From Haliotis asinina (Eukaryota): a stretch of 64,000 bases of DNA. The position numbers were made by a program, and so were the translations under genes. The stretch is from assembly GCF_037392515.1 (NCBI RefSeq), contig NC_090294.1, forward strand, positions 14,347,038 to 14,411,037, written 5' to 3'. The stretch's first letter is position 1; the number at the start of each line of letters is the position of its first letter. This document shows, piece by piece, positions 27,040-62,170 of this stretch. The notes under the pieces were generated by a model that was not told the DNA's origin, ran no database searches, and saw only the letters and a program-made list of their open reading frames with translations.

Positions 27040-27212
27040 CCCATGTGGATATAGCTGTGTCTAGTGGTTTAAACATTCACTTGTCATGCCAAAAGCCTGG
27101 ATTTGAATCCCAACATGGGTACAATGTGTGGAGCTCATTTCTGGTGTTCCTCACCATGATATTGCTGGAATATTGCTAAAAACAGCAAAAAAAATAAACT
27201 CGCTATATATTA
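27040..27212 (+). mobile_element. tRNA-derived SINE family A copy
   Basis: TAGTGGTTTAAAC (A-box-like) ... GGATTTGAATCCCAACATGGGTACAATGTGTGGAGCTCATTTCTGGTGT...GATATTGCTGGAATATTGCTAAAAACAGC. Confidence 0.8.
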
Positions 27213-27457
27213 CCTGTGAATATATCTTAAAATAAACTTTTCAACTCGTCAAAATATAATGTGTATTTGAATACCCGTTTAGGGACCATTGATAATCTAT
27301 GGCTAGGGGGAGTGATGATGATTTGTAATGGTAAACCATGTACAATGTGAACAACACCTGAGATTTATGTGTATCTATGCTTTCAAATAGGAATATATTT
27401 ATATTCATGAAGCCTCGAGTGAACATGGATTGGTTTATTGTTTGGTTCCATTTTCAG

Positions 27458-27527
27458 CAAGCGAGTGACTGGTGAAGAATGGCTTGTGTCAACACCAGGG
27501 GCTTATGTACCAGGAGTGTTTGAAGAG
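27458..27527 (+). CDS. MVP: MVP coding exon (N)[23 protein letters not shown]
   Basis: Acceptor ccattttcag|C, donor GAG|gtgaga. Matches human [23 protein letters not shown]. Confidence 0.9.
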
Positions 27528-28894
27528 GTGAGACAAAATCTGTTTGCTTTCTGAATTACAGTAAGTCATTGTACGGAGTGATCTGTGGGCTAGTAACCAA
27601 GACCATGACTCCTAAACTGAACACAGACTTAAAACAGTCTTAGTACTAAGGTTGCTTTGTTTAACTGCACACAGGGCTTAATGTTATGACACACGCATGC
27701 ACAAAATAGCTCTAATATCCAGCAACAAGTGCTGCGCAAAGGAGATTCCAAGTGCTTGAGTAACTGGATATGGTCTGTTTGCAGTTGAAGGGTACTGATG
27801 AATTTCACTTTAATCAGTAATGTAAATGAAATAAAGTAAAATTAAGGTTGTGAATCCTCAGAATTTTACCTTGCCAACTGAAAATTCCTATCTTAGAATA
27901 ATAATCAACTTTGGAAAGAGTTGGACACTGCTGACAATAGAAAATATGAAAAATCTCAAGTCTGATTCACCACTACGAACCATCAAGGTCCTTATGATCA
28001 AATGACCAGATGGTCTTACTCTTGTCAGTTATGATGCACGAAAATGTTCATGGACAGATCATTTGAAAGGCACGGACCATACTAATGGAACAGTCTACCA
28101 TCTGACATTCCGTGTGTACGTTTACGTCAACACATAAGATGCATTATTACAGACATGCATGCTGTAACCACAGTCTGTTTGCAGTGAAAATGTACTGATG
28201 AAGTTTACTTTAAACAAAAAGGTAAATCAAATAAAGTGAAGTTAAGGTTGCAAATCCTCATAATTTTACCTTGCCATTTGAAAAGTTTCAGGATTTTGTT
28301 CAACTTAGGATAAAAATTGTTTAAAAAACAATCATAGTTTCAAATCGCTATTATTGGTTTGTATTACAAGAGTTCATGCACATTAAACAAAATACCAAGA
28401 CAGTGTTCGCGTTAGTGCAGAAACATGTTTTTCAAGCAAAACAAATAATAAAACCAAAATCACAAAAAATATTTAGCATGCAGCTTTTGGACACATAGAT
28501 TCTGATCTACATAATTTTAGAAAGTATCTTAAAATTGCTACATAAACACAACCAATAAATTTTAACATGATTCCGGATTGGGCTGAAATTTCTTGCGCAA
28601 AAAGTTTGGACTACATATTTATGACTTTATTTCTGCACAGAGTCATACAAAACCTACCGCAACCACTGCCAAGAACATCGGAGGGTTGGTCTAACTTAAC
28701 ACTCATCACATACTGCACATGCATTTCTTTCTCTGTTTCAACTACTGCGCTTACTCCCTTGTAATACAAAAAAGTTCATAAGCGATTTGAAACTATGATC
28801 ATTAGTTGGCTCATGACGTATTTATAAAATTTCTGATAATTAGAGAATTAAGATGGATAAATATTCACTTCAACTGTATTGTGTTTCACTGTAG

Positions 28895-28989
28895 GTACTC
28901 GGTGTGAAATCAAAGATAACCTTGACCCATGATGCTGGCCTTCACCTTCGTGCCACTCGGACATTAACTGATGCGTATGGTGACAGCAG
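28895..28989 (+). CDS. MVP: MVP coding exon VLGVKSKITLTHDAGLHLRATRTLTDAYGDS(R)
   Basis: Acceptor tcactgtag|GTACTC, donor CAG|gtaaat. Matches human [32 protein letters not shown]. Confidence 0.85.
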
Positions 28990-29139
28990 GTAAATTATGT
29001 GGTTAAATCATCCTTTTGTCCATTTGGGTCATTCGGACTGCAGCTGTGGATAGACTTAGTATGTGTTGTATTACCCATTCTCAGTGAAGTACAGATTCCT
29101 GTACTTTGGTTGGGTTTGGCTTGATTTGGTTAGTTGTTT

Positions 29140-29390
29140 CTATGCTTCACTGATCAATATTCCAGCTGTGTGGCGCCGGTTTGTAAATAATTGAGTCCGG
29201 ACCAGACAGTTAAGTGGACAATAGCATGAGCATCAATCTTTACACTTGGGATATGATGACTTATGTCATCCAACTGAGCAAGCCTTACTACCCAATCTCA
29301 TTGGTCTGATTTTACAACAGGCATGGGTTTCTGAAGACTGATTCTCAATTTTTTAGGGGTTGGGCCCCATCTGGAGACTGTGTTCATAGT
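29140..29390 (-). mobile_element. SINE family B copy (minus)
   Basis: Reverse complement gives CAGAAACCCATGCCTGTTG...GATTGATGCTCATGCTATTGTCCACTTAACTGTCTGGTCCGGACTCAATTATTTACAAACCGGCGCCACACAGCTGGAATATTGATCAGTGAAGC. Confidence 0.75.
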
Positions 29391-29728
29391 CATGGATATG
29401 TTAATTGTTTGGTATCAAACTTGTGTGTTTTTCAAAAGTTGACTACAGTCCCCCATGCTTGTCATTAGTGTAGATCACTTGACTATTTAGAGGTGGCCAT
29501 TTTGTTTGCCACAGTGTTGCAACAGAAAACAAACGACCCTTGCTAAATGTTCCACTTAGATAGTTTCCCAACAACCTATGTTACAAGAAGCATTTGAAAC
29601 ACAAAGGAGCAAATGATGGCCAGTCTTTGTACCCCAATAATTGTAGCTCACAAAAATAAATCACTGGATAAATGTATGTACTGATGTGAAGTACACTCAG
29701 TGAAGGGTGTGTGATGTTTTTGTTGCAG

Positions 29729-29795
29729 GTTGGCTGGAGATGAATGGCTTCTGACAGGAGAAGAAACTGATAGTTATTTTCCTGAAGTTGGAGTG
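29729..29795 (+). CDS. MVP: MVP coding exon (R)LAGDEWLLTGEETDSYFPEVGV
   Basis: Acceptor ttttgttgcag|G, donor GTG|gtaatt. Matches human [20 protein letters not shown]. Confidence 0.85.
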
Positions 29796-29837
29796 GTAAT
29801 TCAGTCCTAGTTCATAGATGTTTTGGTAAAGAATATG

Positions 29838-30000
29838 AGTGTGTGAGTGAGTATGGTTGGATGCTACTGTAATCAATATTTCAGCAATATCACGGAACAC
29901 ACCAGAAATGGACTTCACATATTGTATCCATGTAGGGAATCAAACCCGGGACTTCTATGCGACAGGCGAACACTTAAACCACTGGGCCATTCCACCACCT
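29838..30000 (-). mobile_element. SINE family A copy (minus)
   Basis: ACACCAGAAATGGACTTCACATATTGTATCCATGTAGGGAATCAAACCCGGG is the reverse complement of the family A core. Confidence 0.8.
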
Positions 30001-30849
30001 TGGTAATGAATGTGTATAAGATTTAGAGGTGATGTGTGATGTATGTGTTGTCATTGATATGTGTAGGTGATCTTGTGGTATAAGGGACCGATCCCTATTT
30101 ATAGGTAAGTGTTGTGATGATGATTTAGTGGGGAGGGCGGGTACTCATTTTGTTCTGGGGAGGTAGGGGGATCATCACTTGTACAGATGATGATTAAAAA
30201 TTATGGGATGGGGAGTGGTGGATCACTAATTTTGTACAGTACACGCAGGATGGGTCTCTTACTTTGTACATACTTTTTTTTGAGGAGGTGATTCACGGGG
30301 ATGGGGATTCACGTCGCATATGCTTCACCATAAAAATCATCACCCCTATCCATAAATTATCCTCGATCGTATTGATGTGATCAGTACAGTGGAAGCTGTC
30401 TAAACAGGCACTCACAGGGACTGAAGAAATGATCCTGTTTAGACAATGTGCTGGATTGGAGAGCTGATGATAAATGTATATGCCACCGATGGGACTGAGA
30501 TTTTGTGCTGGTGTTTACAACTTGCCGGATTGGACAGATGCCAGTAATGACAGCTTCCACTGTAATTAGAAGGTGTGCACAAAGATGTAAATGCGTGCTA
30601 TATTTGTATTTGCGTCTTTGTGTACACCTTCTGCTGATGATGTAGACTCTGTGGGTGCAGTCAGTGCTGTTGCTGGAAATGATGATGGTGTTTTCCCAAT
30701 ATTTTTTGCGACTGTGGTGTACATAATTTTGATGTAGGTGTAAGTAATGATAATAAAGATAACTGTACATTTATAATTCACTAAATTCCATTCACTCGGT
30801 GAATGCTCATAGCTCAACAGTCTTTATTACCCTAGGTAATCCAGCCTGC

Positions 30850-31093
30850 CAGTAAGGCACTAGGATATTCATCACATGACTTATCCCACCAGGTACCCAT
30901 TTTCTGCTGGGCGAACAGTTGTAAGGTAGTTGAAAAAGCCTTCACTCATGACAATAAAGCCCCGAGTTTGATTCCCCACATGGGTACAATGTGTGAAGCC
31001 CATTTCTGGTGTTCCCTATTGTGATGTTTCTGGAGTATTGCTAAAATCAGCATAAAACACAACTAACTCACTCACTCACTCACTCACTCACTT
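30850..31093 (+). mobile_element. SINE family A copy with (CACT)n tail
   Basis: GAGTTTGATTCCCCACATGGGTACAATGTGTGAAGCCCATTTCTGGTGT...GGAGTATTGCTAAAATCAGCATAAAAC...ACTCACTCACTCACTCACTCAC. Confidence 0.85.
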
Positions 31094-31165
31094 TGTTAAT
31101 GATGTGCATGAAATAGTTAAAGACAGTGTTGATGTAGTCGGTAACCAAGACATGTCCTGCTGCAG

Positions 31166-31307
31166 GAGGTCGTGAAGCAGGTGAAGAAGACAGTGGTCAG
31201 CAAGGGTCAGTACTGTGTTGTCCTTGACCCTGTAGATGAAGACAAGAGGCCATGCCTTGGAAAGCGGGTGCTGAAGAAGGGGTTGTGTACATTTTTCCTT
31301 CATCCAG
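31166..31307 (+). CDS. MVP: MVP coding exon EVVKQVKKTVVSKGQYCVVLDPVDEDKRPCLGKRVLKKGLCTFFLHP(G)
   Basis: Acceptor tcctgctgcag|GAGGTC, donor CCAG|gtaaac. Matches human [35 protein letters not shown]. Confidence 0.9.
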
Positions 31308-31539
31308 GTAAACAAGAGCGGCACATTTCCTTACTCTCGACTTTTCACACAGTCACAATGACTGAGGCAGTTTTAATTCTATCACCTTAGAAGACAAGTT
31401 AGCCAGAAAATATGCCTGTTGTCTTAAACGTTTCAGCTGGTAATAAACTTGTCATTTCAGTGGCAAAACAGTACAGATATTACAGGTATCAAAGCGGGGA
31501 ATGCAGTATTAGGTTCTGTTCGTATGTTTGTATGAAGTG

Positions 31540-32070
31540 GAATATCTTGAGAACTTTTCTTTAGATTTTTTTCATATTTGGTACCTAGGTTCACCACAGT
31601 ATAAGAAAGGTCCCAGTCAGATTTGGTGACCTTGACCTTTATTTCAAGGTCAGAATGGGATGTTGACGTTTTACCCTTGCCATCGAGATATCTCACTGGA
31701 TTTTCTTCATATTTAAGATAGGGCTTGTCTTGGCAAGGCGCCAGCCCCAGCCAATTTTGGTGACCTTAAATCCACTTAATTGTCAAAGTGTTGTTGACAC
31801 TTTGAAGATGCCAGCATGTTAAGGTGCATGTTAAGCTGGTCGGCAAGATATCTCAAGTACTGTTTGCTGGATTTTCTTCATATTCAACAACAAATTTTAT
31901 CTAAGGCATGTGCAGGGCCCAGTTGATTTCAAGGTCACTGTGACACTTTGAATATTCCAGCATATTACACAGCCTGTTAAGATTGTCAGCAAGGTAAAGA
32001 CTTTGTACACTTTCAAGACTTTCCTTGAATGTTTTTCAATAAGCAATTTCTTAAATACCATTTGGGCATA
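31540..32070. repeat. ~175-bp tandem repeat x3 in MVP intron
   Basis: Reiterated GGATTTTCTTCATATT...GGTGACCTT...CAAGGTCA...GACACTTTGAA...CCAGCAT...AAG..GTCAGCAAGATATCTCA blocks. Confidence 0.6.
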
Positions 32071-32139
32071 TATTTCATACTCTAAGACATTAATGTCAAA
32101 GTCCGAGTGAACCTTGAAAATATTTGTGTGTTTGAACAA

Positions 32140-32325
32140 CTACAAACGGGATCGAGTGGCAGGCTTGGTTGACAAATGTCAGTGTATCGCTATTGAGTAG
32201 ATCAGTGCTCATGCTGTTGGTCACTGGATTGTCTGGTCCAGACTGTATTGTTTACAGACCACTGCCATATAGCTGGAGTATTGCTAAGTGTGGTGTAAAA
32301 CCAAACTCACTCACTCACTGAAAGT
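32140..32325 (+). mobile_element. SINE family B copy (5'-truncated) with (CACT)n tail
   Basis: GATCAGTGCTCATGCTGTTGGTCACTGGATTGTCTGGTCCAGACTGTATTGTTTACAGACCACTGCCATATAGCTGGAGTATTGCTAAGTGTGGTGTAAAACCAAACTCACTCACTCAC. Confidence 0.85.
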
Positions 32326-32354
32326 TATGACATTTTGTGTCTTCCCATGTTTAG

Positions 32355-32456
32355 GTGAGAGGCTTGAGGATGGCATACAGAACTCCCATGTCCTGTCAGC
32401 TGATGAGAGCCTCGTCCTCCAGGCCACGGGAGCATTTACTGATGATATGTTTAAAG
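32355..32456 (+). CDS. MVP: MVP coding exon (G)ERLEDGIQNSHVLSADESLVLQATGAFTDDMFK(G)
   Basis: Acceptor ccatgtttag|GTGAGAGG, donor AAAG|gtatgg. Matches human [36 protein letters not shown]. Confidence 0.85.
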
Positions 32457-32809
32457 GTATGGACAATATTATATTATTATTATTATATATTTAAAGGAGT
32501 GGCTAGTAATAACCTGAGTAGGCTTGTGTTAATGTATCAGATCCCACAGATCCCATCTTACTTTGCCTTTGTTCACCAGCAGAATAAATGGGTGCCCAGT
32601 AGGATAAGTTATGTGCTTATTAACCTTCTTGTGCCTTGGATGCAGCTTTAGGTATCTGAGGTAATTATGTGCCATGCTTTAATTGTTGTTGTCCTCAGCA
32701 TGCATGAGATTAGCGCATTACAAATGCACTTATTATACTAAAGCCATGTGAAGCTTGTTTATTTGCAAAAGTGAAGAGTTTTTACATATTGTTTTTTTTT
32801 TTTCAACAG

Positions 32810-32900
32810 GAAAGCCTAAAAGAAAGCCAGGTGATTTGTGGTTGATCCGAGGACCACTCGAGTACATCCCACCCATTGAAGTGGAGATTGTGAAGAAAAG
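32810..32900 (+). CDS. MVP: MVP coding exon (G)[29 protein letters not shown](R)
   Basis: Acceptor t-rich tract caacag|GAAAGCC, donor AAAAG|gtaatg. Matches human [25 protein letters not shown]. Confidence 0.9.
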
Positions 32901-33168
32901 GTAATGATATCTTGTAGTGTTATAAGACTGGTAGTGGTGTCCTATCCTGTTAATGTACCATGAAGAGAAGTCGGTCTACCCACACTTCGAAATAAAGATC
33001 TTGAGGAGTTCTAGATCTATCCACCCTTTGTCGAAATTGGAACTTGTGAAGGGATGGTAGGTTGATCAAATCAGACTCCTAAGTAGTGATTGGGAAGAGA
33101 ATTTAGCCCTTGTTGTTGAATAATGTGAATCACAAGGTATCACAAGACATCTCTCTTATTTGTTCCAG

Positions 33169-33229
33169 AGAAACTATGCCGCTTAGCAAGAATGAGGGTA
33201 TCTATGTTCAGAACAGGCAGACAGGGAAG
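33169..33229 (+). CDS. MVP: MVP coding exon (R)ETMPLSKNEGIYVQNRQTGK
   Basis: Acceptor tttgttccag|A, donor AAG|gtacgt. Matches human [20 protein letters not shown]. Confidence 0.9.
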
Positions 33230-33329
33230 GTACGTTCACAAAATCAGATGCTGGTGGTAATGGACAATAATGTACTCTGCAAGATTTACTACAATTCAGA
33301 CTAGCTAATGAGACAAAGGACACACTATC

Positions 33330-33590
33330 TGGCAGGATGGTAAAGTGGACACTCCTTATGCCAAACATTGGTGTTTAATTTCCCACATGGGTACAATATG
33401 TGAAGCCAATTTCTAGTCTCCCCTGTTGTGATGTTGCATGAATATTGCTAAAAGCAGCATAAAAGTCCACTCAAGTCTCACTCACACTCCCACTGACCCA
33501 TCCTGTCACTCACTCACTCACTCACTCACTCACTCACTCACTCACTCACTCACTCACTCACTCACTCACTCACTCACTCACTCACTCTGC
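33330..33590 (+). mobile_element. SINE family A copy followed by a long (CACT)n tail
   Basis: TTTCCCACATGGGTACAATATGTGAAGCCAATTTCTAGTCTCCCCTGTTGTGATGTTGCATGAATATTGCTAAAAGCAGCATAAAAG... then (CACT)~20 at 33507-33588. Confidence 0.85.
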
Positions 33591-33664
33591 TTTTCTCCAT
33601 ACAGTTTGACCCCATTTTCAGAGTTAACAAATGTGCAGATAAATGATTTTATGAGCAATATTTT

Positions 33665-33765
33665 GGTAGGGAACACCAGAAATGGGCTTCACACATTGTA
33701 CCCATGTGGGGAATTGAACCCATGTCTTTCACCACTAGGCTACTGCACCGGCCCCGCCATGAAGA
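33665..33765 (-). mobile_element. SINE family A fragment (minus), inverted relative to the copy at 33330
   Basis: AACACCAGAAATGGGCTTCACACATTGTACCCATGTGGGGAATTGAACCCATG... with tRNA-like head CACTAGGCTACTGCACCGGCCCCGCC. Confidence 0.8.
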
Positions 33766-33865
33766 GACCGGCCATCAGAGATATTTTTCAAGTTACCATT
33801 CAACGTTATTTCGCACTGAGGGGTCCCGAAGTCACCTGTTTGATAATTTATGACTGTCTCTTCAG

Positions 33866-33960
33866 ATAAGAAGTGTGATGGGGCCATGCTCGTACATGCT
33901 GAATGCACACGAGGAACTATGGGAGAAACCATTAACTCCAGAGGTTGAGGAGATACTCAG
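33866..33960 (+). CDS. MVP: MVP coding exon IRSVMGPCSYMLNAHEELWEKPLTPEVEEIL(R)
   Basis: Acceptor tgtctcttcag|ATAAGA, donor CAG|gtaccc. Matches human [30 protein letters not shown]. Confidence 0.9.
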
Positions 33961-34573
33961 GTACCCAGTGGACTCTTCCATAATTATCTTCAAATGATGG
34001 TTTTCACAACTACATGTATATCATAGAAGAATTTAAATATTTTATCAACTTGCGGAAATAAGGATTGGTTGGTGTAGGGGTGGAAATATTTGTTGTTTTG
34101 TATTTTGACTTCATATCATTCAGCAATGTAATCATTTAATATTGCATCCAGTACAGTTCTGTAAAATTAAGCATTTCCCTCTTTTAAGATCCTTTCATCA
34201 CTGAAATTCAAGTCACTATGATGAAAGCATCTGCCAATACTATATTTGCATATCATCGTACGTCTAGATTCCTGTTAGGTGACGTTTATAAAAAATTAAT
34301 GAGCTTTGGCATATGATCAAAGCCATATAAATCCCTGCTTCACCTGTATGCTGTCTGTCAAGAGTCAGGTCTTACCTCTTTATGTTCATAGAGATAGCAA
34401 ATGAAGTGTTTTTAGAAAATATGATGAATAAGAAATAATAATATGTATTGCAAGCCTTTATTATGTAAGATGTCATTTATGATTGCTTTCCCATGACGTA
34501 GACAGAGTAAGGCCCTCTGCTAAATGGAGTTTCATTGAAGTGTTAATGTGTCTGTTTTTTTAAATATTTCCAG

Positions 34574-34652
34574 GAATGGTGGTGGCATCGGTGATGGAAA
34601 CATTCGAAAACTGGCATACTACGAGCAGTCCATCAATCCAAGTATTCTCATG
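34574..34652 (+). CDS. MVP: MVP coding exon (R)NGGGIGDGNIRKLAYYEQSINPSILM
   Basis: Acceptor atatttccag|G. Donor ATG|gtactg is a weaker donor, chosen for frame continuity with the next exon. Corresponds to the variable human NKGQDPLADRGEKDTAKSLQPLA segment. Confidence 0.65.
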
Positions 34653-34994
34653 GTACTGTTGATATTGAGCACAATACTGTTGTTTCATCACTGTTATAAA
34701 AAAACACATGTCAAATGTTTTGTAATTAAAAACAAGTCAGTAAGATGAGACTTGACATAAATTTATACACTAATTTAGGCCAGTGTTGTCATGCTAGTTT
34801 ATGATCACTATCACTGACTGTCTGACAGTAGATGTTAAGGAGATAAACATACTATGTTTAAAAACCAGAGGTATATAACAAAATTACAATAAATCTAAAT
34901 TTAATTCAAAACCAAACATGTAGATTTGATGTGTTGTTCCTGATCAGCACACAGGTATATCTAATGTCTAGATTTGACAATGGTTGACATCTTG

Positions 34995-35215
34995 TAGAGG
35001 TGAGGAAGAGCTATGTTTGTCGTAAAAGGCGACTAATGGGATTGGGTGATCAGGTTAGCAGACATGGTTGACACATGTGATCATAGCCCATTTTGTGTAG
35101 ATCAGTGCTGATGATGGTGATCACTTGATTGTCTGAACCAGATTCAATTATTTACATTTATAGCTAGAATATTGCTGAGTCCAGTGTTAAACAACAAACC
35201 AAACAACTATTTGTC
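34995..35215 (+). mobile_element. SINE family B copy
   Basis: GTCGTAAAAGGCGACTAATGGGATTGGGTGATCAGG...GATCAGTGCTGATGATGGTGATCACTTGATTGTCTGAACCAGATTCAATTATTTACA...CTAGAATATTGCTGAGTCCAGTGTTAAAC. Confidence 0.75.
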
Positions 35216-35290
35216 AGTTATGGCCTGGCCATTCAGATCTGTATCCTACTGATTTCACTTATTATGTTTTCTTTCATTTTTTTTTCTCAG

Positions 35291-35347
35291 GGCAGAAACA
35301 GAACCAAAATAGTTACATACCGTTGTCCCGGTAACACAGCTGTCCAG
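35291..35347 (+). CDS. MVP: MVP coding exon GRNRTKIVTYRCPGNTAVQ
   Basis: Acceptor ttttttctcag|GGC, donor CAG|gtgagt. Matches human PRNKTRVVSYRVPHNAAVQ. Confidence 0.9.
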
Positions 35348-35647
35348 GTGAGTTGTGCATGAACAGGTGATTAATATTTGTGGAAAAGAGAATGAAAATT
35401 GTAGAGGTAACATGCATACACTATGGTATAACATGGTTGTTTATGTTGTTTGTTTAAATTGTTACCCTGGTAGCAGTACACTGAAAGACATTTCTAAAAA
35501 CATGTTACAATATGTATGTTATTTTGGTAGTGTATGTTTTGATTATGCTAAGTCTGAAGGAAGAACTATTTGCACTAACACCTCAAGTTTTGTTTTGCTG
35601 TTTACACAGACATAAGAAGTAATATATATATAGAAAATTCTCTCACA

Positions 35648-35945
35648 TAATTGACCCATGAAGGTCTGGGGTAGAATAGGCCTTCAGCAACCCATGCTTG
35701 CTGTAAAAGGTGACTATAAGAGGCGAATAACAGGATTGTGTGGACAGGCTTGCTGCCTTGGTTGACACATTTTATCATTTCCGCAGATTGGCGCAGATTG
35801 ATGGTCATGTTGTTGATCACTGGATTGTCTGGTCCAGACTTGATTATTTACAGACCACTGCCACATAACTGGAATATTGCTGGGTGCAGCATAAGCCTAA
35901 ACTCACTGACTCATTCACTCACTCACTCACTCACTCACTTACTGT
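35648..35945 (+). mobile_element. SINE family B copy (full length) with (CACT)n tail
   Basis: GGGGTAGAATAGGCCTTCAGCAACCCATGCTTGCTGTAAAAGGTGACTA...GATTGATGGTCATGTTGTTGATCACTGGATTGTCTGGTCCAGACTTGATTATTTACAGACCACTGCCACATAACTGGAATATTGCTGGGTGCAGCATAAGCCTAAACTCACTGACTCATTCACTCACTCAC. Confidence 0.85.
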
Positions 35946-36075
35946 CACATAATTTGTTGTTTGTTTGCTGTAACAAAAGGCAAACTCTTCAAGTCTTCAA
36001 AATATGTTTGGTCCATGATCAATTTTTCCCATTTTCCTGAACCAGTACTTGATCACACTTGTGACAATCTTGCAG

Positions 36076-36172
36076 GTGTACAATTATATGCAAAAGACTG
36101 CGAGGGTAGTGCTCGGGCCAGACCTCATCATCCTGGGTCCACATGAAAACTTCAACGTGCTCAGTCTCAGTG
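36076..36172 (+). CDS. MVP: MVP coding exon [32 protein letters not shown](G)
   Basis: Acceptor atcttgcag|GTG, donor AGTG|gtcagt. Matches human [33 protein letters not shown]. Confidence 0.9.
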
Positions 36173-36244
36173 GTCAGTAGATACTTGATGTACTGGCCAT
36201 AGATATATTTAATTCCAGTTTTGTGTTCATCGTTGTCCATTTAC

Positions 36245-36425
36245 TTAATTACCCATGAATCTCTGGGTTAGGCTTGATCTTCTATAACCAATGCTTGTCC
36301 TAAGAGGTGACAAATGGGATCAGGTGGTCAGGCTTACTCACTTTACACATTCTATCCCATTTCCTCAGATCGATGCTCTTGATCACTGGATCACGCACTC
36401 ATCGACTTAATTTCAAGTGATCCCA
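36245..36425 (+). mobile_element. SINE family B fragment (5' part)
   Basis: CTCTGGGTTAGGCTTGATCTTCTATAACCAATGCTTGTCCTAAGAGGTGACAAATGGGATCAGGTGGTCAGGC...GATCGATGCTCTTGATCACTGGATCA. Confidence 0.65.
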
Positions 36426-36755
36426 TTCTTCTATGTTTCATATTGTACTGTTAGTGCTTTAAGAGCCTATCTTGTTTGTATGACAAAGTGGTCTCATCTC
36501 CAGTGTTTAATTTTGCATGGGATTTGGGATCCTAAAAGGTAATAATCCTGATTAGGCCCTGCCCTTTCTACATACATATGTAATTATGAAATAAATATTA
36601 GGTGTACGTACAATGACATCTGTAAGATTGAAGCTGGCCACAAAACTACCAACTGCTGTGATGATGAAAACTTGTACATTTTATTATATTTCACTCTAAA
36701 GAGAGTGTGATTTTTAATTTCTTTTTTTTTGTTTGTTTGTGTGTGTGTACATCAG

Positions 36756-36835
36756 CTGGCAAGCCCAAGAAAGCCAATGCTTTGAAGTCACTATGCATGA
36801 TGTTGGGGCCAGACTTTATTACAGATATTCTTGAG
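36756..36835 (+). CDS. MVP: MVP coding exon (A)GKPKKANALKSLCMMLGPDFITDILE
   Basis: Acceptor gtacatcag|CT, donor GAG|gtaaga. Matches human [28 protein letters not shown]. Confidence 0.9.
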
Positions 36836-37221
36836 GTAAGAAGATCTTTGCATTCCATGATTTTTATAGAGAAGCATATCCCTCCCCTTCGCCTTCTCCA
36901 CCTGTACAAAACAACGACGCCCCATCCACCCCACCACCCCTTCTAGGGAATCACTACATTAACCCCCTAGCCGTAAGTTTTGAATGTTTCCTATGTATTT
37001 TGTTTTAAATTATTTACATTGATTTTTGCAAAATATGATTTCAAGTTGAAATGTGCAAATGTTGTGAATCATCCTGATTTGCCAAAGTCCCACTTTGGCC
37101 ATTGTGATATTGTTGACCAATCATTGATTGAGACTGAACATTACCCATAACCCATTATCCATTCTTATGTTTCTGTGACACGTAGAACTTACTTAACATG
37201 GCTTATGTTTTTTGCATGCAG

Positions 37222-37281
37222 GTTGAGACTGCAGATCATGCAAGACTAAAAATCCAAATAGCATTCAACAATCATTTCGAG
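37222..37281 (+). CDS. MVP: MVP coding exon [20 protein letters not shown]
   Basis: Acceptor ttttgcatgcag|GTT, donor GAG|gtaatt. Matches human [20 protein letters not shown]. Confidence 0.95.
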
Positions 37282-37407
37282 GTAATTATTTATATATTTC
37301 AAGAAATGATGATATTTTTTTAGTTATTTACATAGATTTTTTGTTTATATTTATAAGATACAATAAATATATGTTATATTCTGTAAATGTAGATAATTTC
37401 TTCACTG

Positions 37408-37582
37408 CTCATGAGGGGAGGTTGTAAAGCCTAGTGGTTAAAGCCTTCACCTTCTTGCTAGAAGATCCAGGTTCAATTCCCCACATGGTTGCAATTTGTG
37501 GAACCCATTTCAGGTGTCTGATATTGCTGCAATATTGTTAAAAGCAGCATAAGACTAAATTCACTCACTCACTACATCGAAC
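37408..37582 (+). mobile_element. SINE family A copy with CACT tail
   Basis: GCCTAGTGGTTAAAGCCTTCACC...CCAGGTTCAATTCCCCACATGGTTGCAATTTGTGGAACCCATTTCAGGTGTCTGATATTGCTGCAATATTGTTAAAAGCAGCATAAGACTAAATTCACTCACTCAC. Confidence 0.85.
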
Positions 37583-37605
37583 TTGAATGTGTGATTCACT
37601 TTCAG

Positions 37606-37684
37606 TATTATCGAAATGATGATGAAAGTCTGAAGCAAATGTTTGCTGTACCGGACTTTATCGGCTTTGCCTGTCGACAAGTTG
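37606..37684 (+). CDS. MVP: MVP coding exon YYRNDDESLKQMFAVPDFIGFACRQV(G)
   Basis: Acceptor ttcactttcag|TAT, donor GTTG|gtaagt. Matches human [28 protein letters not shown]. Confidence 0.9.
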
Positions 37685-37714
37685 GTAAGTATGATGTTGT
37701 TCCCCTAAACTAGA

Positions 37715-38420
37715 TCCTGTTTCACAAATTAAAGCTAAAGGAGCATTACGATTGTCATAGCTCCTATGGAGGGCCCCATTTTACAAGGTTGTTATGGCAC
37801 TATAACTTCAAATGTGTCATACCTCCTATCTAGGGCCCTGTTTGACAAATTTGATTCACTGCGGCATCTGTCATACCATTTGTGCAGGGTCCCATCTCAC
37901 AAAGCTAACTCAGCATTATGAATGTCATACCTCCTGTAAAGGGCCCCATTTCACAAAGCTAACTCAGCATTATGAATGTCATACCTCCTGTAAAGGGCCC
38001 CATTTCACAACGCTGTTGTAGTACTCCTATACAGGGACCTATTTCACGATGGTAACTTAGCACTGACTGTTGTACCTCCTAAATGGGCCCATTTCTTCAA
38101 GCTATTTCAGTGCAGCATCTGTTGTTCCTGCTATACAGGGACCTGTTTCATAAAGCTGTGGTAGCACTTTGACTTTCATACCTCCCATACAGGGTCCCTT
38201 TTCACAAAGCTAACTTAGCACTACGTATGAAATAACTTCTATGTAGGGCCACATTTCACAAAACCTTTGAAGCACTATGACTGTCATAGCTCCTGTATGA
38301 CAGTCCATGGCCCCATTTCACAAAGCTAATTTAGCACTACGAATGTCATACCCCTATACATGAAATCTGTAGGGCTATGATAGCTTTCTGAAACAGGGTT
38401 CAGGAGCACTGCTGTCTGCC
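37715..38420. repeat. ~61-bp satellite-like tandem repeat (GGGCCCCATTTCACAAAGCTAACTYAGCAYTAYGAATGTCATACCTCCTRTA...), ~11 units, in MVP intron
   Basis: Direct reading. Two adjacent units are near-identical at 37925-38040. Confidence 0.85.
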
Positions 38421-38979
38421 TGATTTTAGTGGGTCATTCTTATCCATTTCCAATCTTTTCACCCTCAGACACAACTGGAATATGTTACAGTGGAAAATAT
38501 GACTCATTAGTTTTGGAATTACACTTTCTTGGTGAAGTACAGATTCCAGTACTTTTGTAGGTGTCAGTATTGGGTATTTCTGAGCGGTAATCTGCTCAAG
38601 AGTTGTTTCCCCTTGGACACACTCATGGGATGTGAACCAAGCATATGTACTTGCAGTTGGATGAAGAAGAAAGTTTGTTCTGGTCGAGACACAGCTTCGT
38701 GATATGACAGCAGGGTCCCATCAGGGATTTGAACCTAAACTCTCAGAGTTACTTAATTGGCAGCACACAAAGGCAGCCATCTTACTCACTCAGCCACCAC
38801 TACTTCCACCAAAATGGAAGTGTGACAACTGGTAGTTCAGACCTCAGATTTCTGTACCCCTCTGGCAAGTGTGATTTAACAGACTCCCATGCTTGAAAGT
38901 CATGAATACACAAAGCCATTTAGAAAGTTGTCAAATGTAACACAATTTTCCACCATTTCTTCGGAACACCTCTTTCCAG

Positions 38980-39125: not shown

Positions 39126-39184
39126 GTAGGTGGCAATGAAACTGTATAACAATTCATTACTGTCCTTTGTGTCTTCTGTGGCTA

Positions 39185-39850: not shown

Positions 39851-39864
39851 CTTTACATCCCCAG

Positions 39865-39965: not shown

Positions 39966-40014
39966 GTTTGTTCTTGATGTTTGTTTTCAGCAACCATCTT
40001 CTAGGTCTAGGGAT

Positions 40015-51244: not shown

Positions 51245-51385
51245 CTTGAGACATAAGTGAATGAGTGAGTGAGTTTAGTTTTACGCCGCTGTTACCAATA
51301 TTCCATCAGTATCATGGCGGTGGACACCAGAAATGGGATTCACACATTGTACCCATGTAGGGAATCGAACCCGGTGCAGTGTTGT
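51245..51385 (-). mobile_element. SINE family A copy (minus)
   Basis: GTGAGTGAGTGAGTTTAGTTTTACGCCGCTGTTACCAATATTCCATCAGTATCATGGCGGTGGACACCAGAAATGGGATTCACACATTGTACCCATGTAGGGAATCGAACCCGG. Confidence 0.85.
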
Positions 51386-51569
51386 CGATTTTTATAGATA
51401 TGCATATTTTTAACTCTAAGAATGCTTCCTGGAAGAGGCCTTACATTGTACTGGTAGTTCTGCATGTATGGTTAACTCGTGAGGCATACAGCCATGTCTG
51501 GACGTACATACCAATCATCATCACCATCATCATCATCTTCATCACCATAGGCCCATATACACTACATAG

Positions 51570-51720
51570 GCAGTGGGGTAGCCTAGTGGTTAAAGCGTTC
51601 GCTCGTCACTCCGAAGCCACGGGTTCTATTCCCCACATAGGTTCAATGAGAGTCCCCCGTCGCGATATTGCTGGAATGTTGCTAACAGCGGTGTAAACCC
51701 GACTCACTCACTCACATACA
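51570..51720 (+). mobile_element. SINE family A copy (tRNA-like head intact)
   Basis: GGCAGTGGGGTAGCCTAGTGGTTAAAGCGTTCGCTCGTCACTCCGAAGCCACGGGTTCTATTCCCCACATAGGTTCAATGAGAGTCCCCCGTCGCGATATTGCTGGAATGTTGCTAACAGCGGTGTAAACCCGACTCACTCACTCAC. A-box and B-box are recognisable. Confidence 0.85.
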
Positions 51721-55649: not shown

Positions 55650-55775
55650 AGAGGCAGTGGTCACGGCAGAGACTCGGGTTCGACTCCCAACATGGGTATA
55701 ACGTGTGAAGACCATTTCTGGTGTCCCCGCCGTGATATTGCTGGAATTGCGGCGTAAAACGATACTCCTGTGTCC
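55650..55775 (+). mobile_element. SINE family A fragment (3' part)
   Basis: CTCGGGTTCGACTCCCAACATGGGTATAACGTGTGAAGACCATTTCTGGTGTCCCCGCCGTGATATTGCTGGAATTGCGGCGTAAAACGATACTC. Confidence 0.8.
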
Positions 55776-58700
55776 ACCCATTTAGTTACACTAATCTGGC
55801 ACAACAAAATGTCGTAGACGTCTTGTGGTGTGAATGGTCGCGAGTAGAGTTTTAAAGACATGGGGTAAGTGTGAAATCCACTGTTTGATATACCGATAAA
55901 TGACGTTACAGAGTAACAAACAGCAGCAGTCTCAAAGCCCATTTCAACTCCGTCGTACAAGGACCTGGCGTATATTTAATTCTTTGCTATTTGCTTAATC
56001 CAAACGTATAGTGCACTGTTTCAAATTTCGTTAAGTGACGAAAGGTTCAATTTAGCATTTGGCTTTTCAAGGTCACCAAGGCCCTTAATATAGGACTTAA
56101 GAGTTTTCATTTAGAACACCGCCATCTTTCTCTTCCTTCCCCCAATGTGACTCAGCTTACTTTATGAGATTCCTGTACTGACCCCTCGTCCTCGTCAGGC
56201 ACAGTGATACCCCCATGTCAGCCCCCGGACCATAAATCCCGTGCACGTCCGTGACGACATCCCTTCATTGCAACGTAACCTCGATTCAAATCTCGCGAGA
56301 AGTGGATGAGAAGATAAGGCCGCCATTAAGTTAGCCAAGAGCAATTACCATTGATTATTTCATGATTTAAAACCGCTTTTGAAGAGTCATAATTGTGAAA
56401 TGAAATAATATTTGGATATTTTCATGTGCTATCAGTTGCCTTATTGATGTTTAATCAACTTCCAGCTAACCGTTAATCCCAGGTTTCCTTCTGGAACATA
56501 TTTGCAGTAGGAGATTTTAGTTCATATTGATGAACCATCAGTAAGCTTCATTGGAATATTGAGTTGAAAGTTTTATGTCTTAGCTGACACAGAAGATTAA
56601 CACTAGCTTTCGAACATTCATCAACATTCAAGGTAATGAAACTTCAATTCTAATGGTTGCCTTTGACCTTACGCAAACGTGACCTTGACATTGAAATACC
56701 GCTGGAATGCAAACCTAGTCCGCACTCTTTCAGTGTGTGGGGATCATAAAACGATATGACCTGGTATCGACGTGCCAAAAACCAAATAGAATGAAAGGGC
56801 GTTTTTTAACTGTTATTAAATATCGATGGCAATATTTGCAAAGAGCACATGGAAGAAAAGTCAATAACTCAAAATGCAGTTTTCTCTTTGCTTTAGAGCG
56901 TGTCTACAAGACTATCGGAGTATCTTTCCACGGGGCTCCAGTGATGACTCCATGCTCAGTGCTAAACGTAAATCTCTGAAGAGCGAGGCGATTATCCTCT
57001 TCACAGTTTTCATCTTGAGAAATAAAACAATTTAAGATGTGATATTAAACATATCGCTGTTATTCAGAGTATCGTTTCTTCTTTTGAAACGGATACTGTT
57101 GGGCTTTTTATTATGTCATGTCGCTGAAAGTTTTTGTCATGGCGAAAGCAATACCTACCGTATTTTCTCCAATCAAACTTCTTGAGCATTATCTCTGCGA
57201 TTCAACATGTCAAAGATATGTACGCGTGGGCATTTAATTGGGGAGATACTGTAAGTAAGCTGGTTTTTGTTATATCAACATGTAACAATGTTTATTGTGT
57301 GAAAACTAAAAAAAACTAAGGACCTGACAATTACCTGTTCGGTGATTTGTCCACTAAACCACGTGTGTGTAGGCTGACGTTGACAACAAATAGTGCTCAT
57401 GCTGATTTGTGCGCACGATCATACAGAGCAACATACACACGTACATATGTTCTAGGAAGGTACTAATTGCCTTCTTTTGTCCGGAATCGTTCTTCTATTA
57501 GGCTCATCTATAAAGCTCGGCGACCTTTTCCCATACGACAGATTGCGATCAAATTGACCTTTTCGCTCGTATCGCTCTTCCATCTATCATTACTCATCAT
57601 AAACAAATGCTGGATTGACAGAGTAATATGGCTGACCCAATCGAATTTGGCATGACGTCTGCACGACACGTTGCGCTGGACATTAGCATAGAGTGACCAT
57701 CGGGATGTTTGACCAACCAGATCCGAACAGGAGGCATAGATGACTTTTTTATTCATTAAATTCTCCCTTCAATTCAGGTCACGTGCATGGGCGCACCAAG
57801 CGAACGGATCCTCGTGCAGGGCGCGTGCATGATGCACGTGCGCACGTGCTGATTCCATGCACATGACCGATGTAATGGCTACTCGTGGCTACAATTGCTT
57901 TAAAGAAGAAACTGAAAGCTGGGTTAACCAATTTCCTTCCCTTTCCAGGCAATTGAACGCTGGACGAAGCTAATGTGATCCAATTCGGCCCGTGTTTGGC
58001 TCGCTATCACCCAGCACCTCTCTCAATATGGCAGAGCGCTAGGATGCGGATCGGTCCTGAATGGCAGTTTAGCTACTCGGGCACAGGACTAAATTAGATC
58101 ACCGTAACAGGGGTCGTTGAGTCGCTCAATTGCCTCTCATTGCCTAATGCTGTTTGTCTTAAGAACCTAAAAGTCCCGGATGTTCGAGCGTGTCACAGGA
58201 AGTCGGAGACAAAGGTGCGCGAGCATTATATTGTCTAAGATAACGGGATGGAGGGCTCTTGATGCCAGTCGACTGTTTCCCTGTCCCGTGGCAATTATGG
58301 CCCGGTAAAGTGTGACAAGTCACGGACGACGGGCAGGAATAAAGCTTGAGTGGTTTAAGCAGAAATAAACGTCCCCCAAAAGACCGTTTCATTCCGAATG
58401 CTTCCACACACTATGAGCATATATACAATGGAGCTTAAATACATCACAACAAATGTATTTGCATTTATCTTGCAGTTGTTTTATCATCCGTTCAAATATA
58501 TCTCTAAGGTATAATTAGTTAACATCTTGACATTGATTTATTGTATTAACGAACGCTCATATCTAAGTATTGTTCTTTTGCTATTTAATGATACTATTCG
58601 GCTCTCGCCTATGCTGAACTGTAATGATGTTACGTATATGTTAGGAAGTAAGGGTGTCTTAGGAAGTGAGGGTGGGGCTCACGGGTTACCATGGGTAATT

Positions 58701-59206
58701 TGCGTGAGTGAATGTCATTTTACGTGTCTTTCCTCTTCAATCATATTTCAACCAGGTTATGTTCTTCACCCCATATGAGACTCAGAAATCAGATGAATAA
58801 GGAACATGGGTTGCCAACATACACGATCGTCATTAAAGGTTGGTTGTTTATATGTTTGTTGTTTGGCGCCGCACTCACCAGTATTCCAGCTATATGGCGA
58901 CGATCTGTGCACACTCACCAGAATTCCAGCTATATGGCGACGATCTGTGCATAGTCAAGTCTGAAACAGAAAATCCAGTGATGAATAGCACGAGCATGAA
59001 TATATACAATATTGATACTGTGACATAAGTCAACGCGCCCTACCACCCGATCCGAACAAACATGCGCAGCTAAAGACCAATTCTTCCAGTACATCAAAGT
59101 TTATCATGGTAGAGGGCCCAGACCTTCTTGGGAGGTAAAGTTCCACAACATGAGCATATAAATTCCTCGATTTCCACTGAATAGAACTCCTCCCTACTCG
59201 ACAAAT

Positions 59207-59272
59207 TCTCTCTCTCTCTGTGTCTCTCTCTCTGTGTCTCTCTCTCTCTGTCTCTCTCTCTCTCTCTCTCCT
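59207..59272. repeat. (CT)n / (CTCTGT)n imperfect microsatellite
   Basis: Direct reading. Confidence 0.9.
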
Positions 59273-61340
59273 TTATTTTCATTTACTGCTAGACACATAT
59301 TAGATGATCCTGCACACTAAACGACGCATTTGTGACAAGAGAGGCGGTACAACGAATTGGGCGAGTACACTTGGCTGCTACAGGTAGCTTGACGATTATG
59401 CACGTGCAATACATGCTAATCGTGACATGAAATCAACACCGCATATTTCTTCGAATGATAAGACTGCAATTTCAGGCTTAAGATACTGATATTCCACGCT
59501 AACCTTTAGTTAAGACGAAGACAAACAGATGATTAGGGCATTGACAAGCATTTTAGATATTCAACAATTTTGTTTTAAAAAAAACAGGAAAATGTCATTT
59601 GCTTCGTGAAATGGATCGGTGGTCCTAAACATATTTGCTCAGTATATTATGTTGATTCAACTCGTTGGGATTGTACCTGTTCCCAAATCGAGTGTGCTAT
59701 AACAATTCATGCGTGAAACGCACGGGGAAAATGAACTTCTCGATATTTATCAGACAACCTGTCTCCCTCTTGTTTCAAGTGGATCGTTCTGTGGGGCGTT
59801 CCTAAGTATGCAAATTGGGGTCATTTGTCAGGTCGTGGATCATCTTATATGTGTTTACGAGTAAAATTGTTATAAGTCACTTATGACGTTTTCAATTCTA
59901 CGTCACACTACCTGTTTTCTCGCACTGTTCATTCTAATTTTCCCGTGGCATACACCGCACCGTTTTCATATTGCCATATTTTAAGGCATCGCTGTTTTTG
60001 TCAATTTCACGTCATACTTGATTGGCCATGGATATTTAGGAAAACTCACACATCGGCTCTTCCTTGTAACGAGACGTGGGTTCATTACATCAGACATTTT
60101 CGCAGACTCCAACACGATCTTGTGAAAATATGAGTTCATAAAATGCAAGGCAGTTTAACTTCTAATGAAACATCGACTCAGCACGTTTCAAATTCATAGT
60201 GGGATTCTTGGATGATAGCTCATAACCTCCCTGATGAAGAAACGAAAAAATCTCAAATAAAAACCAAATGAAAGACCGTTAAAAGTTTGAAATCTCGTAT
60301 TAAATGCTCATTTCGCGGTGAGTGATGCGGTAAGCATTCTCAAGATTTATGAAACAACATCACAACTGTCGCCATCCATTTCGCGAGCGCCATCTGCATT
60401 ATCGTTCAAGGGGAGATTACTCGGTAATGACAAAACCTGTCCTGTTACAAGCTTCAACATGGCGTTGAACAAATTGATGGCCGTCAATTATGGCAAATTT
60501 CATCACGTTGATAGCCTTCCAACATGTTTATCACTGGGGCATAAATTCACCTGCTTCTCCAACGAACCCTACCCGCAGGAGCGGAACTTATTTCCAATAA
60601 CGCAAACATTTGGCTCTAATGAGAGCTACAGGTTTTTCATGGCTCTTGGACCGCCATCAGTGAAGAGTAAGACGTTACAGCGTGTCGTTAGAATGGAAAG
60701 CGGTCGGGGTCCGTGTCTGGATTTCGCTCCCTCGTTTTAGATGGGGGATACTAAAAGCTTAACCGGGCCTTGCTGACGGCGAACAAACGAAAGCGACAAG
60801 CACTTTAACATAAACTAACATCATGTTGCGAAAAAGAAAACGAAGTTATCTGGTTTTACAAGAAAATGACAAACAAAAGCATAAAAACCTACAAGTTTAC
60901 ACCGATATTAAATGTGAGAAGCGTGTTTTTTGTCTCTAGCTTTAAGGCGAGAGGGTTACTTTGAACAGAATACGATGATAGTTCCTTTGAAGGCATTCGC
61001 CGTGACGATGTATGAGTTTGACGGGAATCTATGACCAGGTACGAAATCTGAAAATAGTCCGGAGGTTTGCGATGTTATTGATTCCACACGTGTCTCAGTT
61101 TTATGCTTGTTTTCATGAAATTAAATTAATGTCCCGACAAAAAACCAGCACCACGAGTACCGTTATAAGTCCGTCGCACTGTGTTATAGTGAGTGATTGA
61201 TATCATATTTAAAGTCACATCGCAAATATTTCCGCCATACCGTGCCTAAATGATACACTAATGATACATTTCAAACCGAAAAGATGTTAGCAAATTACAG
61301 TGAAATAACCTGATTCTCACAGATATACCGCCATATAGCT

Positions 61341-61344
<4 letters not shown>

Positions 61345-61419
<75 letters not shown>
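61345..61419. repeat. (AT)n microsatellite, ~37 units
   Basis: Direct reading. Confidence 0.95.
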
Positions 61420-61421
<2 letters not shown>

Positions 61422-61924
61422 TCGGAGGACAATCAGTTCTTCCATATTACTATTCAGAAAAGTACGTTTCTAATGTGAATTAAATGTTATGTGTGTCTTT
61501 GTACATGTGTGTGCGCGTTTGTGCGTGCGCGTGTGTAGTTTTGTGAATTTGACATTTTTGGCTGAGAGTTTTCCCTTACGATGTTATAGCAATGATTACA
61601 TCGGTAAGAAAAAGCTAAATGGGAAATATGATCAGGTTTCTCATATTTTTCACGTATCATATTGTTGAATCAAAGGAGTGCAAAACATTACACTCATTTT
61701 CCAAAAGTTACTTTTTTCAAATATTTTGATGTGTTTTAAAATTTGATTTAGAATGAATGTCCTGTCAATTCTAAAGACTGTCATTGTATTATATCGATTA
61801 ATATAACAAATTTTGAAATACACGTACATTGTCATAATAAATGTCACATAAATGGTGTTTATTTCCGCATGATATAACAGTCTACAATGTTTTAGCTAGA
61901 ACAAATCGGTCTGTAAACAGGTCA

Positions 61925-62170
61925 ACCCGTTAAGATCCGAATTGGACCTGTTCCTCAGCAACCCATGCTTTTCGTAAAAGGCGCGATGAAGGAAATCGGG
62001 TTTTCACTTTCGCTGACTTGGTTGATCATGGTATAGCATTTGCGTAGATCGATGTTCATGCCATTGATCAATGTATTGTCTGGCCCAAACCCGATTTAAA
62101 AATCACAGAGCTGGAACTACTACTGCTGAGTGCGACGTCCGAAAAAAACCAAATCAAATGCGTAGACAAT
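61925..62170 (+). mobile_element. SINE family B copy
   Basis: CCTGTTCCTCAGCAACCCATGCTTTTCGTAAAAGGCGCGATGAAGGAAATCGGG...CGCTGACTTGGTTGATCATGG...GATCGATGTTCATGCCATTGATCAATGTATTGTCTGGCCCAAACCCGATTTAAAAATCACAGAGCTGGAACTACTACTGCTGAGTGCGACGTCCGAAAAAAACCAAATC. Confidence 0.8.

Follow-up and report, generated by a model that had tools for sequence, protein, structure and literature searches.

How two families of short retrotransposons with different heads and bodies come to end in the same 3' segment, and why most of their copies lie on one strand, are the questions raised by a stretch of 64,000 nucleotides of the Haliotis asinina genome (contig NC_090294.1, positions 14,347,038 to 14,411,037; the window, below, is this whole stretch). 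An earlier note on this DNA had described two abundant families of short interspersed elements (SINEs), here A and B, with a common 3' module and a strong same-strand bias, and we found that observation to be accurate. In the reading that we prefer, to which we give a probability of roughly 0.8, A and B are two short-retrotransposon families mobilised by the enzymes of long interspersed elements (LINEs), and one homologous module, a hairpin followed by a short tandem repeat, is common to both.

Copies were counted over the window by BLAST with body-only consensus sequences, from which the shared tail had been excluded, a strand-symmetric procedure. This yielded 32 copies, 14 of family A (11 on the plus and 3 on the minus strand) and 18 of family B (15 and 3), that is, 26 plus and 6 minus in all (two-sided binomial p=0.0005). 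The earlier tally had been about 14 A and 17 B insertions, more than 25 of them on the plus and 5 on the minus strand; the B copies at 5775-6042 (-) and 12203-12470 (+) were missing from it. SINE sequence accounts for 9.5% of the window. The motifs by which the families had been recognised also occurred far above chance: at <=3 mismatches there were 9 matches to the A core motif (0 expected from shuffles), 3 to the B head motif (0 expected) and 17 to the tail motif (0.01 expected). The copies are listed below with target-site duplications (TSDs), Kimura two-parameter (K2P) divergence and nhmmer E-values where these are given; MVP is the gene for major vault protein, which lies on the plus strand. 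Those of family A are:

27040..27203 (+), tRNA-derived head, core and tail; nhmmer E=1e-44, also by body BLAST
29835..29999 (-), antisense to MVP; nhmmer E=7e-49; TSD ATTC(A/T)TTACCAA
30906..31094 (+), with a (CACT)6 tail
33314..33589 (+), tail repeat expanded to a perfect (TCAC)20 microsatellite at 33506-33587
33654..33754 (-), antisense to MVP, without tail
37409..37589 (+), tail end about 31 nt upstream of the MVP 3' splice site 37604/5
39181..39364 (+), nhmmer E=5e-51
39742..39864 (+), 5'-truncated; tail remnant CCTCACTAACTCA about 15 nt upstream of the 3' splice site 39864/5
40019..40201 (+), by nhmmer
45658..45810 (+), by nhmmer; TSD GCTTCAGC(G/A)A
49263..49423 (+), old, K2P 0.25
51241..51436 (-), CCGCC...GCGGCG hairpin kept
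51568..51712 (+), 14-nt TSD CA(T/C)ATACACTACAT
55660..55790 (+), 5'-truncated

The copies of family B, assigned where possible to subfamilies B1 and B2, are:

5161..5388 (+), B1, young, K2P 0.05; TSD (C/G)TAATGTGGGTAG
5775..6042 (-), B1, young, K2P 0.04; inverted relative to 5161..5388; TSD TAGTTCA(G/C)ATGT
10485..10683 (+), B2, AAC-rich end
12203..12470 (+), B1, within the (CACT)-type repeat of an older tail fragment; 18-nt repeat-type TSD
29121..29348 (-), B2, antisense to MVP
32141..32320 (+), B1, 5'-truncated; tail end 34 nt upstream of the 3' splice site 32353/4
34964..35212 (+), B2, by nhmmer
35651..35941 (+), B1, full length; TSD CT(C/G)TCACATAA
36263..36391 (+), B fragment, body only
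40527..40689 (+), B2 with internal deletion
41619..41694 (+), B2 3' fragment, by nhmmer
42360..42594 (+), B2; TSD T(T/C)ATTCTGATGA
42860..43088 (+), B2, ends 23 nt upstream of the 3' splice site 43111/2
48787..48964 (+), B fragment, old
49579..49848 (+), B1, full length, near consensus; TSD C(T/C)CGAAAGGTAAA
51975..52093 (+), B2, 5'-truncated
58854..59053 (-), B2, 40-bp tandem duplication within the tail hairpin module (58872-58951)
61942..62157 (+), B2, by nhmmer and body BLAST

The elements are dispersed, 175-290 bp in size, and further copies occur in unrelated contigs. Clear TSDs of 10-14 bp were present in eight copies, each of them different and without a common target motif. Once the SINEs were masked the flanks were not duplicated, the remaining self-similarities being unrelated minisatellites only, which ruled out a segmental duplication as the origin of the same-strand copies. 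Because the TSDs are distinct and the flanks unrelated, the copies represent independent retrotranspositions.

The family A consensus, about 175 bp long, consists of a tRNA-like RNA polymerase III (Pol III) head, a core of roughly 45 bp (GGGTACAATGTGTGAAGCCCATTTCTGGTGT) and the tail. The tRNA derivation proposed for it is supported by two promoter boxes that the consensus holds at a distance of about 43 nt, the A box (TAGCCTAGTGG) being perfect and the B box (GGTTTGATTCC) near-perfect; some copies have the B box variant GGTTCGATTCC. This likeness is limited to the promoter boxes and D/T-arm-like sequence and does not extend to a cloverleaf or covariance-model match. The internal Pol III promoter with A and B boxes, a hallmark of SINEs, was found in family A only. 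Mean divergence of the copies from their consensus is K2P 0.18. A family A copy in another contig (L004 1-94, PEAW01029297.1) ends in (CAGT)3 instead of (CACT)n, as does a tail at 17.9 kb in the window, so the terminal repeat unit is variable within a family.

Family B is about 270 bp long and has a head without recognisable small-RNA origin, a body of roughly 190 bp and the tail. Its TSDs place the true 5' end about 13 nt upstream of the start given in the earlier note (..ACCCGTGAAGGTCCGGGGTAGAATAGG), and the first 70 bp begin ACCCGTGAAGGTCCGGGG. Searches of the head found neither Pol III boxes nor an Rfam match, and over the whole window Rfam and ARAGORN returned nothing. In subfamily B1 about 21 bp are duplicated internally, and the end is ...GCGGCGTAAAACTAAA(CTCA)n; subfamily B2, about half of the B copies, has an AAC-rich end (...GCGGCGTTAAACAACAAACC) without the CACT repeat and terminates in TTAAACAACAAACC. 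With a mean K2P divergence of 0.10 versus 0.20, B1 is the youngest family and B2 is older. The two youngest B1 copies, 5161-5388 (+) and 5775-6042 (-), differ from the consensus by 4-5% and form an inverted pair about 390 bp apart, for which a long hairpin would be possible if the region were transcribed.

The A and B consensuses are alike only at their 3' ends, where 47 unique positions are 83% identical (39/47) and are followed by the repeat; nothing else aligned in the consensus comparison. The shared module has the form CCGCC-(N)-ATAT(A/T)GC-TGGAATATT-GC(T)-(N)-GCGGCG, then a short linker and a tandem repeat. The families thus have in common a unique segment and not just a microsatellite, the possibility that had been named as fatal to a shared module. 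It had also been said that both families end in (CACT)n; the common module stands, but the AAC-rich B2 does not fit that description. Part of the difference between the two modules is CpG decay, from GCGGCG to GCAGCA, in older A copies, and over the hairpin region B has 86% identity to a young A copy taken from another contig. In both B1 and B2 a hairpin is predicted with outer stem CGCCGC/GCGGCG, inner stem AGC/GCT and TGGAATATT as its loop (-15.9 kcal/mol).

B1 bears on how the module spread. Its hairpin is of the B2 type (98% identical) and is joined to an A-type linker and repeat, TAAAACTAAA(CTCA)n. Because the younger subfamily thus joins a B2-type hairpin to an A-type terminal segment, its make-up suggests exchange of modules between the families. 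On the simplest reading, the reverse transcriptase would have switched templates inside the homologous hairpin, or B1 would have adapted to a partner whose terminal repeat is different. Of the two sources proposed earlier for the common end, a LINE partner's 3' end and module exchange, the structure of B1 supports exchange, at the level of segments within the tail.

Tails homologous to the abalone module, with 70-75% identity and an AACC-type repeat, were found 13 times in 17.7 kb of another organism (L007 and L008, ENA ERZ25073280 and ERZ25073285). Examples of these short elements are:

L008 760-1080
L008 4292-4440
L008 10940-11010
L008 13380-13540

Some of them are arranged in head-to-tail arrays, and one interrupts the 5' half of another LINE. 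The window itself contains a third type of tail, designated X, of about 70 bp, with the same hairpin architecture and no attached body:

17880..17955 (+), X tail with stems GTCAC/GTGAC and CGG/CCG, loop GAAATATTG, then TTTAAATGTTAA(CTCAGTCAGTG)
61194..61264 (-), second X tail; its identity to 17880-17950 is 75% over 71 bp, and 79% within the hairpin region
12150..12200 (+), X-like tail fragment GTGCCGTTAAATATTAACTCACTCATTCACTCAC, which has CGTTAAATATTAA in common with the L007/L008 LINE 3' end

The identity of X tails to those of A and B is only 55-57%, and they may be severely 5'-truncated LINE ends.

Among the window copies alone, 73% of the cells in the predicted stems were paired, versus 25-46% in slid controls, and covariation in these decayed copies was not significant (66 of 500 shuffles reached the observed score). 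A second set combined the window copies with the X tails of the window and the homologous L008 tails; three of its rows, all from L008, are almost the same, and one of its members had supplied the structure. With that composition, 77% of the cells were paired in register versus 29-42% when slid, covariation was 0.29 versus 0.17 +/- 0.03, and 13 cells were changed on both sides versus 5.1 +/- 1.7, the last two values being reached in 0 of 500 shuffles each. Changes on both sides affected 6 of 11 pairs. The X tails contribute the stems listed above, and the L008 tails the compensated stems CGGCCC/GGGCCG and AGAC/GTCT, with an inserted A-U pair. A conserved 3' stem-loop with compensatory changes, followed by a short tandem repeat, is the feature expected of the stringent type of LINE tail. 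These properties support the view that the shared tail is a recognition element for a LINE reverse transcriptase (RT), as judged from its sequence.

One LINE is present in the window:

14342..17545 (+), 5'-truncated and frameshifted LINE with CCHC gag, RVT_1 and an RNase H-like region; hairpin at 17478-17535 and (GTAC)2

Its 3' hairpin (-31.7 kcal/mol) is followed by (GTAC)2 ending about 17545. Relatives of this element are 50-60% identical to it and contain Exo_endo_phos, RVT_1 and RNase_H domains; their 3' untranslated regions (UTRs), about 170 bp long, follow one common design of a hairpin plus a short repeat. For example, the L001 LINE ends in the hairpin AGACGCT...AGCGTCT and TAAATAATTCAAA(CATC)n, and the L007/L008 LINE in GACGC...GCGTC and GTTAAATATTAAA(TCA)n. 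These ends match the SINE tail in design, not in sequence: LINEs of the I/Nimb group, with endonuclease, RT and RNase H, have the 3' architecture in common with A and B but not the hairpin sequence, and the sole sequence link is the 13-nt CGTTAAATATTAA, present in the L007 LINE end and in the fragment at 12150-12200. The partner LINE probably belongs, in broad terms, with these RT- and RNase H-containing, I/Nimb-like elements.

Three candidates for a partner or for its 3' end were rejected. The 3' UTR of the window LINE ends about 160 bp past the open reading frame (ORF) in its own hairpin and (GTAC)n, which rules this element out as the SINE partner. The module at 17.9 kb is not the 3' end of that LINE, since about 350 bp separate it from where the LINE stops and a 71-bp unit of it appears again at 61.2 kb. 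ORFs upstream of an L008 tail copy proved to be the gag and the start of the endonuclease of another LINE, into which the short element had inserted. When metagenome contigs were scanned for the tail pattern, three short ones (PEAW01...) came up, with A and B copies only and no LINE.

In the mechanism that we favour, the RT of a 'stringent' LINE would recognise the hairpin and repeat and prime on them, and any RNA carrying the module could be copied into the genome by target-primed reverse transcription, producing TSDs of 10-14 bp. The module would move between unrelated heads and bodies by template switching, and B1 would have arisen when a B2 hairpin was combined with the linker and repeat of A type, TAAAACTAAA(CTCA)n. 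Several observations weigh against this account. The search for a LINE with a matching 3' end, which the earlier note had suggested as a check, found none in the window, the three metagenome contigs or about 57 kb of related LINE loci. Covariation is significant in the cross-lineage set, with the composition given above, and not in the window's own copies. No full tRNA was detected in family A, either by ARAGORN (window and A consensus) or by Rfam at E<=0.1. Finally, with Pol III boxes absent from its head, family B is unproven as a SINE in the strict sense.

This last point leads to an alternative for family B, according to which, instead of a SINE, it would be what an internal deletion left of the partner LINE, with 5' UTR fused to 3' UTR, or else a Pol II-transcribed 'LP-SINE'; the shared module would then be that LINE's own 3' end, captured by family A. 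Haliotis elements with LINE-derived heads have been described, with tails common to other SINEs and ACTAAA before the repeat (PMC4758252), and ACTAAA is found in the B1 and A tails; the lack of A or B boxes and of an Rfam family match in the B head also agrees with such an origin. However, the head and body of B show no similarity to the window LINE or to the 5' and 3' regions of the related LINE loci that were fetched, and we regard this alternative as possible but somewhat doubtful. The preferred reading, mobilisation of two families through one homologous module, provides a practical target, as the hairpin defined here can be used in a search for the abalone partner LINE.

The question of strand requires the gene map. 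Using tblastn with a human MVP probe, we located the MVP gene and, near its 3' splice sites, sense SINE tails:

21840..43237 (+), MVP coding exons, co-linear over residues 19-856; the frame closes at about 43235
32319-32354, 37573-37605, 39832-39865 and 43088-43112, sense tails near MVP 3' splice sites

More than 22 exons lie in 21 kb, and therefore nearly all intronic sites of MVP are near exons; because the gene is on the plus strand, the plus excess corresponds to sense orientation. By region, the copies are distributed as follows:

inside MVP, 15 plus and 3 minus, p=0.0075
upstream of MVP, 3 plus and 1 minus, not significant
downstream of MVP, 8 plus and 2 minus, p=0.11
all outside MVP, 11 plus and 3 minus, p=0.057

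The bias had been said to hold inside and outside the MVP transcription unit; the first part is confirmed, and outside the direction is the same but not significant on its own. A more sensitive nhmmer search added six weak old fragments (8159-, 9719-, 50207-, 54336-, 8811+ and 50896+, the sign giving the strand), four of them on the minus strand, which softens the ratio to about 28 plus to 10 minus. The bias is real locally but statistically post hoc, and the explanations that follow compete for its cause. As this is one locus, noticed after the fact and skewed mainly to sense within one short-intron gene, a general strand bias cannot be deduced from it.

One explanation is a local chance fluctuation: orientation would be random genome-wide, and the window was flagged because it is skewed. 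At p=0.0005, a genome of more than 1 Gb divided into 64-kb windows would contain roughly ten such windows by chance, and the post hoc choice of a single window, the softened ratio and the p-value outside MVP all agree with this. However, both families lean alike (A 11/14, B 15/18), as do B1 and B2 separately, and the skew is strongest inside a transcribed gene; we consider chance a serious candidate at somewhat less than even odds. A comparable standing, plausible yet short of an even bet, is given to purifying selection in a short-intron gene, whereby sense copies would be neutral for splicing and antisense copies, bringing cryptic splice signals, would vanish. Besides the dense exons of MVP, the distribution of the donor-like motif GTRAGT fits this explanation, with 10.2 per kb on the antisense strand of SINE copies, 0.33 on the sense strand and about 0.5 in the background, a roughly 20-fold enrichment that arises because (AGTG)n is a run of GTGAGT. 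Human SINEs provide a precedent, being sense-biased 20-200 bp from exons, which has been attributed to cryptic acceptors in antisense Alu (PMC3088655). Four sense SINE tails, rich in CTCAC or ACTAAC, occupy the branch-point zone of MVP introns, 15-34 nt before the 3' splice sites, where a rough expectation is about 1; this was noticed post hoc. The four tails are evidently tolerated there and may even supply branch points. On the other hand, B2 has no GTRAGT in either orientation and yet shows a like skew (6 plus and 1 minus inside MVP), so the donor-site explanation is incomplete and antisense GTGAGT donors are weakened as the sole cause. The sample is also small, and the plus excess persists downstream of MVP, where a Pfam search of 12 open frames, a weak test, detected no gene that could be its cause.

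The excess beyond MVP would fit a bias set at insertion, either by a strand preference relative to the direction of the replication fork or of transcription, or by priming on existing tail repeats with inheritance of their orientation. In mammals, L1 insertions favour the lagging-strand template to a modest degree. In the window, the B1 copy at 12203 has inserted into an older tail repeat and shares its orientation; it follows the X-like tail at 12150-12200 and has a repeat-type TSD. Only 1 of the 32 copies abuts an older tail in this way, however, the TSDs have no common target motif, and non-SINE DNA of MVP is weakly strand-skewed (AT -0.022, GC +0.039), so that we think such a bias unlikely. 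Further-reaching, and in our estimate improbable, is a combined proposal in which orientation-specific splicing compatibility shapes SINE survival while a non-Pol III head (B) and a tRNA head (A) use one RT-recognition hairpin with a swapped terminal repeat. If this were true, the sense tail, with its CUCAC/ACUAAC repeats, would sit in or supply the branch-point region, as at the four MVP exons, the antisense tail would present tandem GUGAGU donors, and short-intron abalone genes would accumulate sense copies genome-wide. Were the sense bias to hold genome-wide, it would give an example from outside the mammals in which an asymmetry of splice signals governs the retention of SINEs.

Additional features of the window were identified:

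1890-2990 (+), frameshifted remnant of a mariner/Tc1-like transposase (DDE_3)
21962-23036, minisatellite in the GC-rich 5' part of the MVP unit, 45-bp unit, about 24 copies, 74% match, open in one frame (SQTPSGEVTSVTI repeats)
23827-24123, second minisatellite, 31-bp unit, overlapping the end of an MVP exon
24565-25557 (+), intact 331-aa ORF in an MVP intron, with a zf-C17orf113 domain
7109-7170, (TG)31
18323-18392, (AC)35
52693-52824, (CTG/CTA)n
61344-61419, (AT)38

Over 19% of the query, the 331-aa ORF has 95% identity to the Haliotis asinina 'zinc finger protein 862-like'; it is probably a transposon-derived gene.

A parallel to the shared tail is UnaL2/UnaSINE1, in which, as Kajikawa and Okada reportedly found in 2002, a 3' stem-loop with a terminal short tandem repeat is the RT recognition and priming element of a LINE and its SINEs. 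The abalone tails resemble it in having a predicted 3' stem-loop and a short tandem repeat, whereas the LINEs sampled here contain RNase H (I/Nimb-like) and are not L2 elements. With respect to orientation, the locus resembles Alu near exons in its preference for the sense direction (Zhang et al. 2011, PMC3088655). The Alu bias is human genome-wide and is ascribed to cryptic acceptors from antisense poly-T, whereas here a single locus is concerned and the candidate is a tandem GTGAGT donor, which is absent from B2.

A literature text search for the SINE motifs returned unrelated matches only, and the named families below were compared by their descriptions. Similar elements are known from the same genus: Matetovici et al. 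2016 described TSD-flanked Haliotis elements with LINE-derived heads ('LP-SINEs', Hdi_LP/Hmi_LP) and tails common to oyster SINEs, and named the hexamers AATATA and ACTAAA before the terminal repeats jointly for Haliotis and Ostrea (PMC4758252). What defines an LP-SINE is that its first part, of roughly 70 bp, has homology to Nimb-17_LMi, I-3_DR or RTE-9_CPB at their 5' end (PMC4758252). Like them, family B is a short, TSD-flanked element whose head is not of small-RNA origin, occurs beside a tRNA-headed SINE with a common tail, and, in B1, ends in a tandem repeat after ACTAAA (TAAAACTAAA(CTCA)n); template switching is invoked in both cases. Unlike in LP-SINEs, a LINE origin of the B head is unproven. 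In Saccostrea, the LP-SINE Sgl_LP has body and tail in common with the tRNA SINEs Sgl_tRNA_1/2 (PMC4758252), whereas A and B have the tail alone in common.

Homologous LINE-derived tails across SINE superfamilies, 35-61 bp long, are also known from bivalve HCD-SINEs, with mosaic tails and Nimb and CR1-Zenon partners (Mob DNA 2024, PMC11481361), and from the MetaSINEs, including HalSINE1 (Nishihara et al. 2016, PMC4824008), for which Nimb LINEs of the I superfamily are likewise the proposed partners. The highly conserved central domain of HCD-SINEs (PMC11481361) was not recognised in either A or B. The Haliotis MESC/MetaSINEs (Hdi, HalSINE1) are set apart, by description, by ending in (CACCT)n with an internal (CA)n, whereas A and B1 end in (CACT)n, B2 is AAC-rich, and an internal (CA)n is absent from all of them. 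That tRNA-headed SINEs and others can have a tail in common is thus already known, in Haliotis too, from publications of 2016 and 2024, and A and B belong to a known kind, of which they are new members unless they have been catalogued already, as is possible. In its present state the case is ordinary repeat biology, and its main use is in the repeat annotation of Haliotis genomes; set beside these systems, the window offers a clean, dated example of tail-module sharing, in which the older A and B2 carry different terminal repeats and the younger recombinant B1 combines them.

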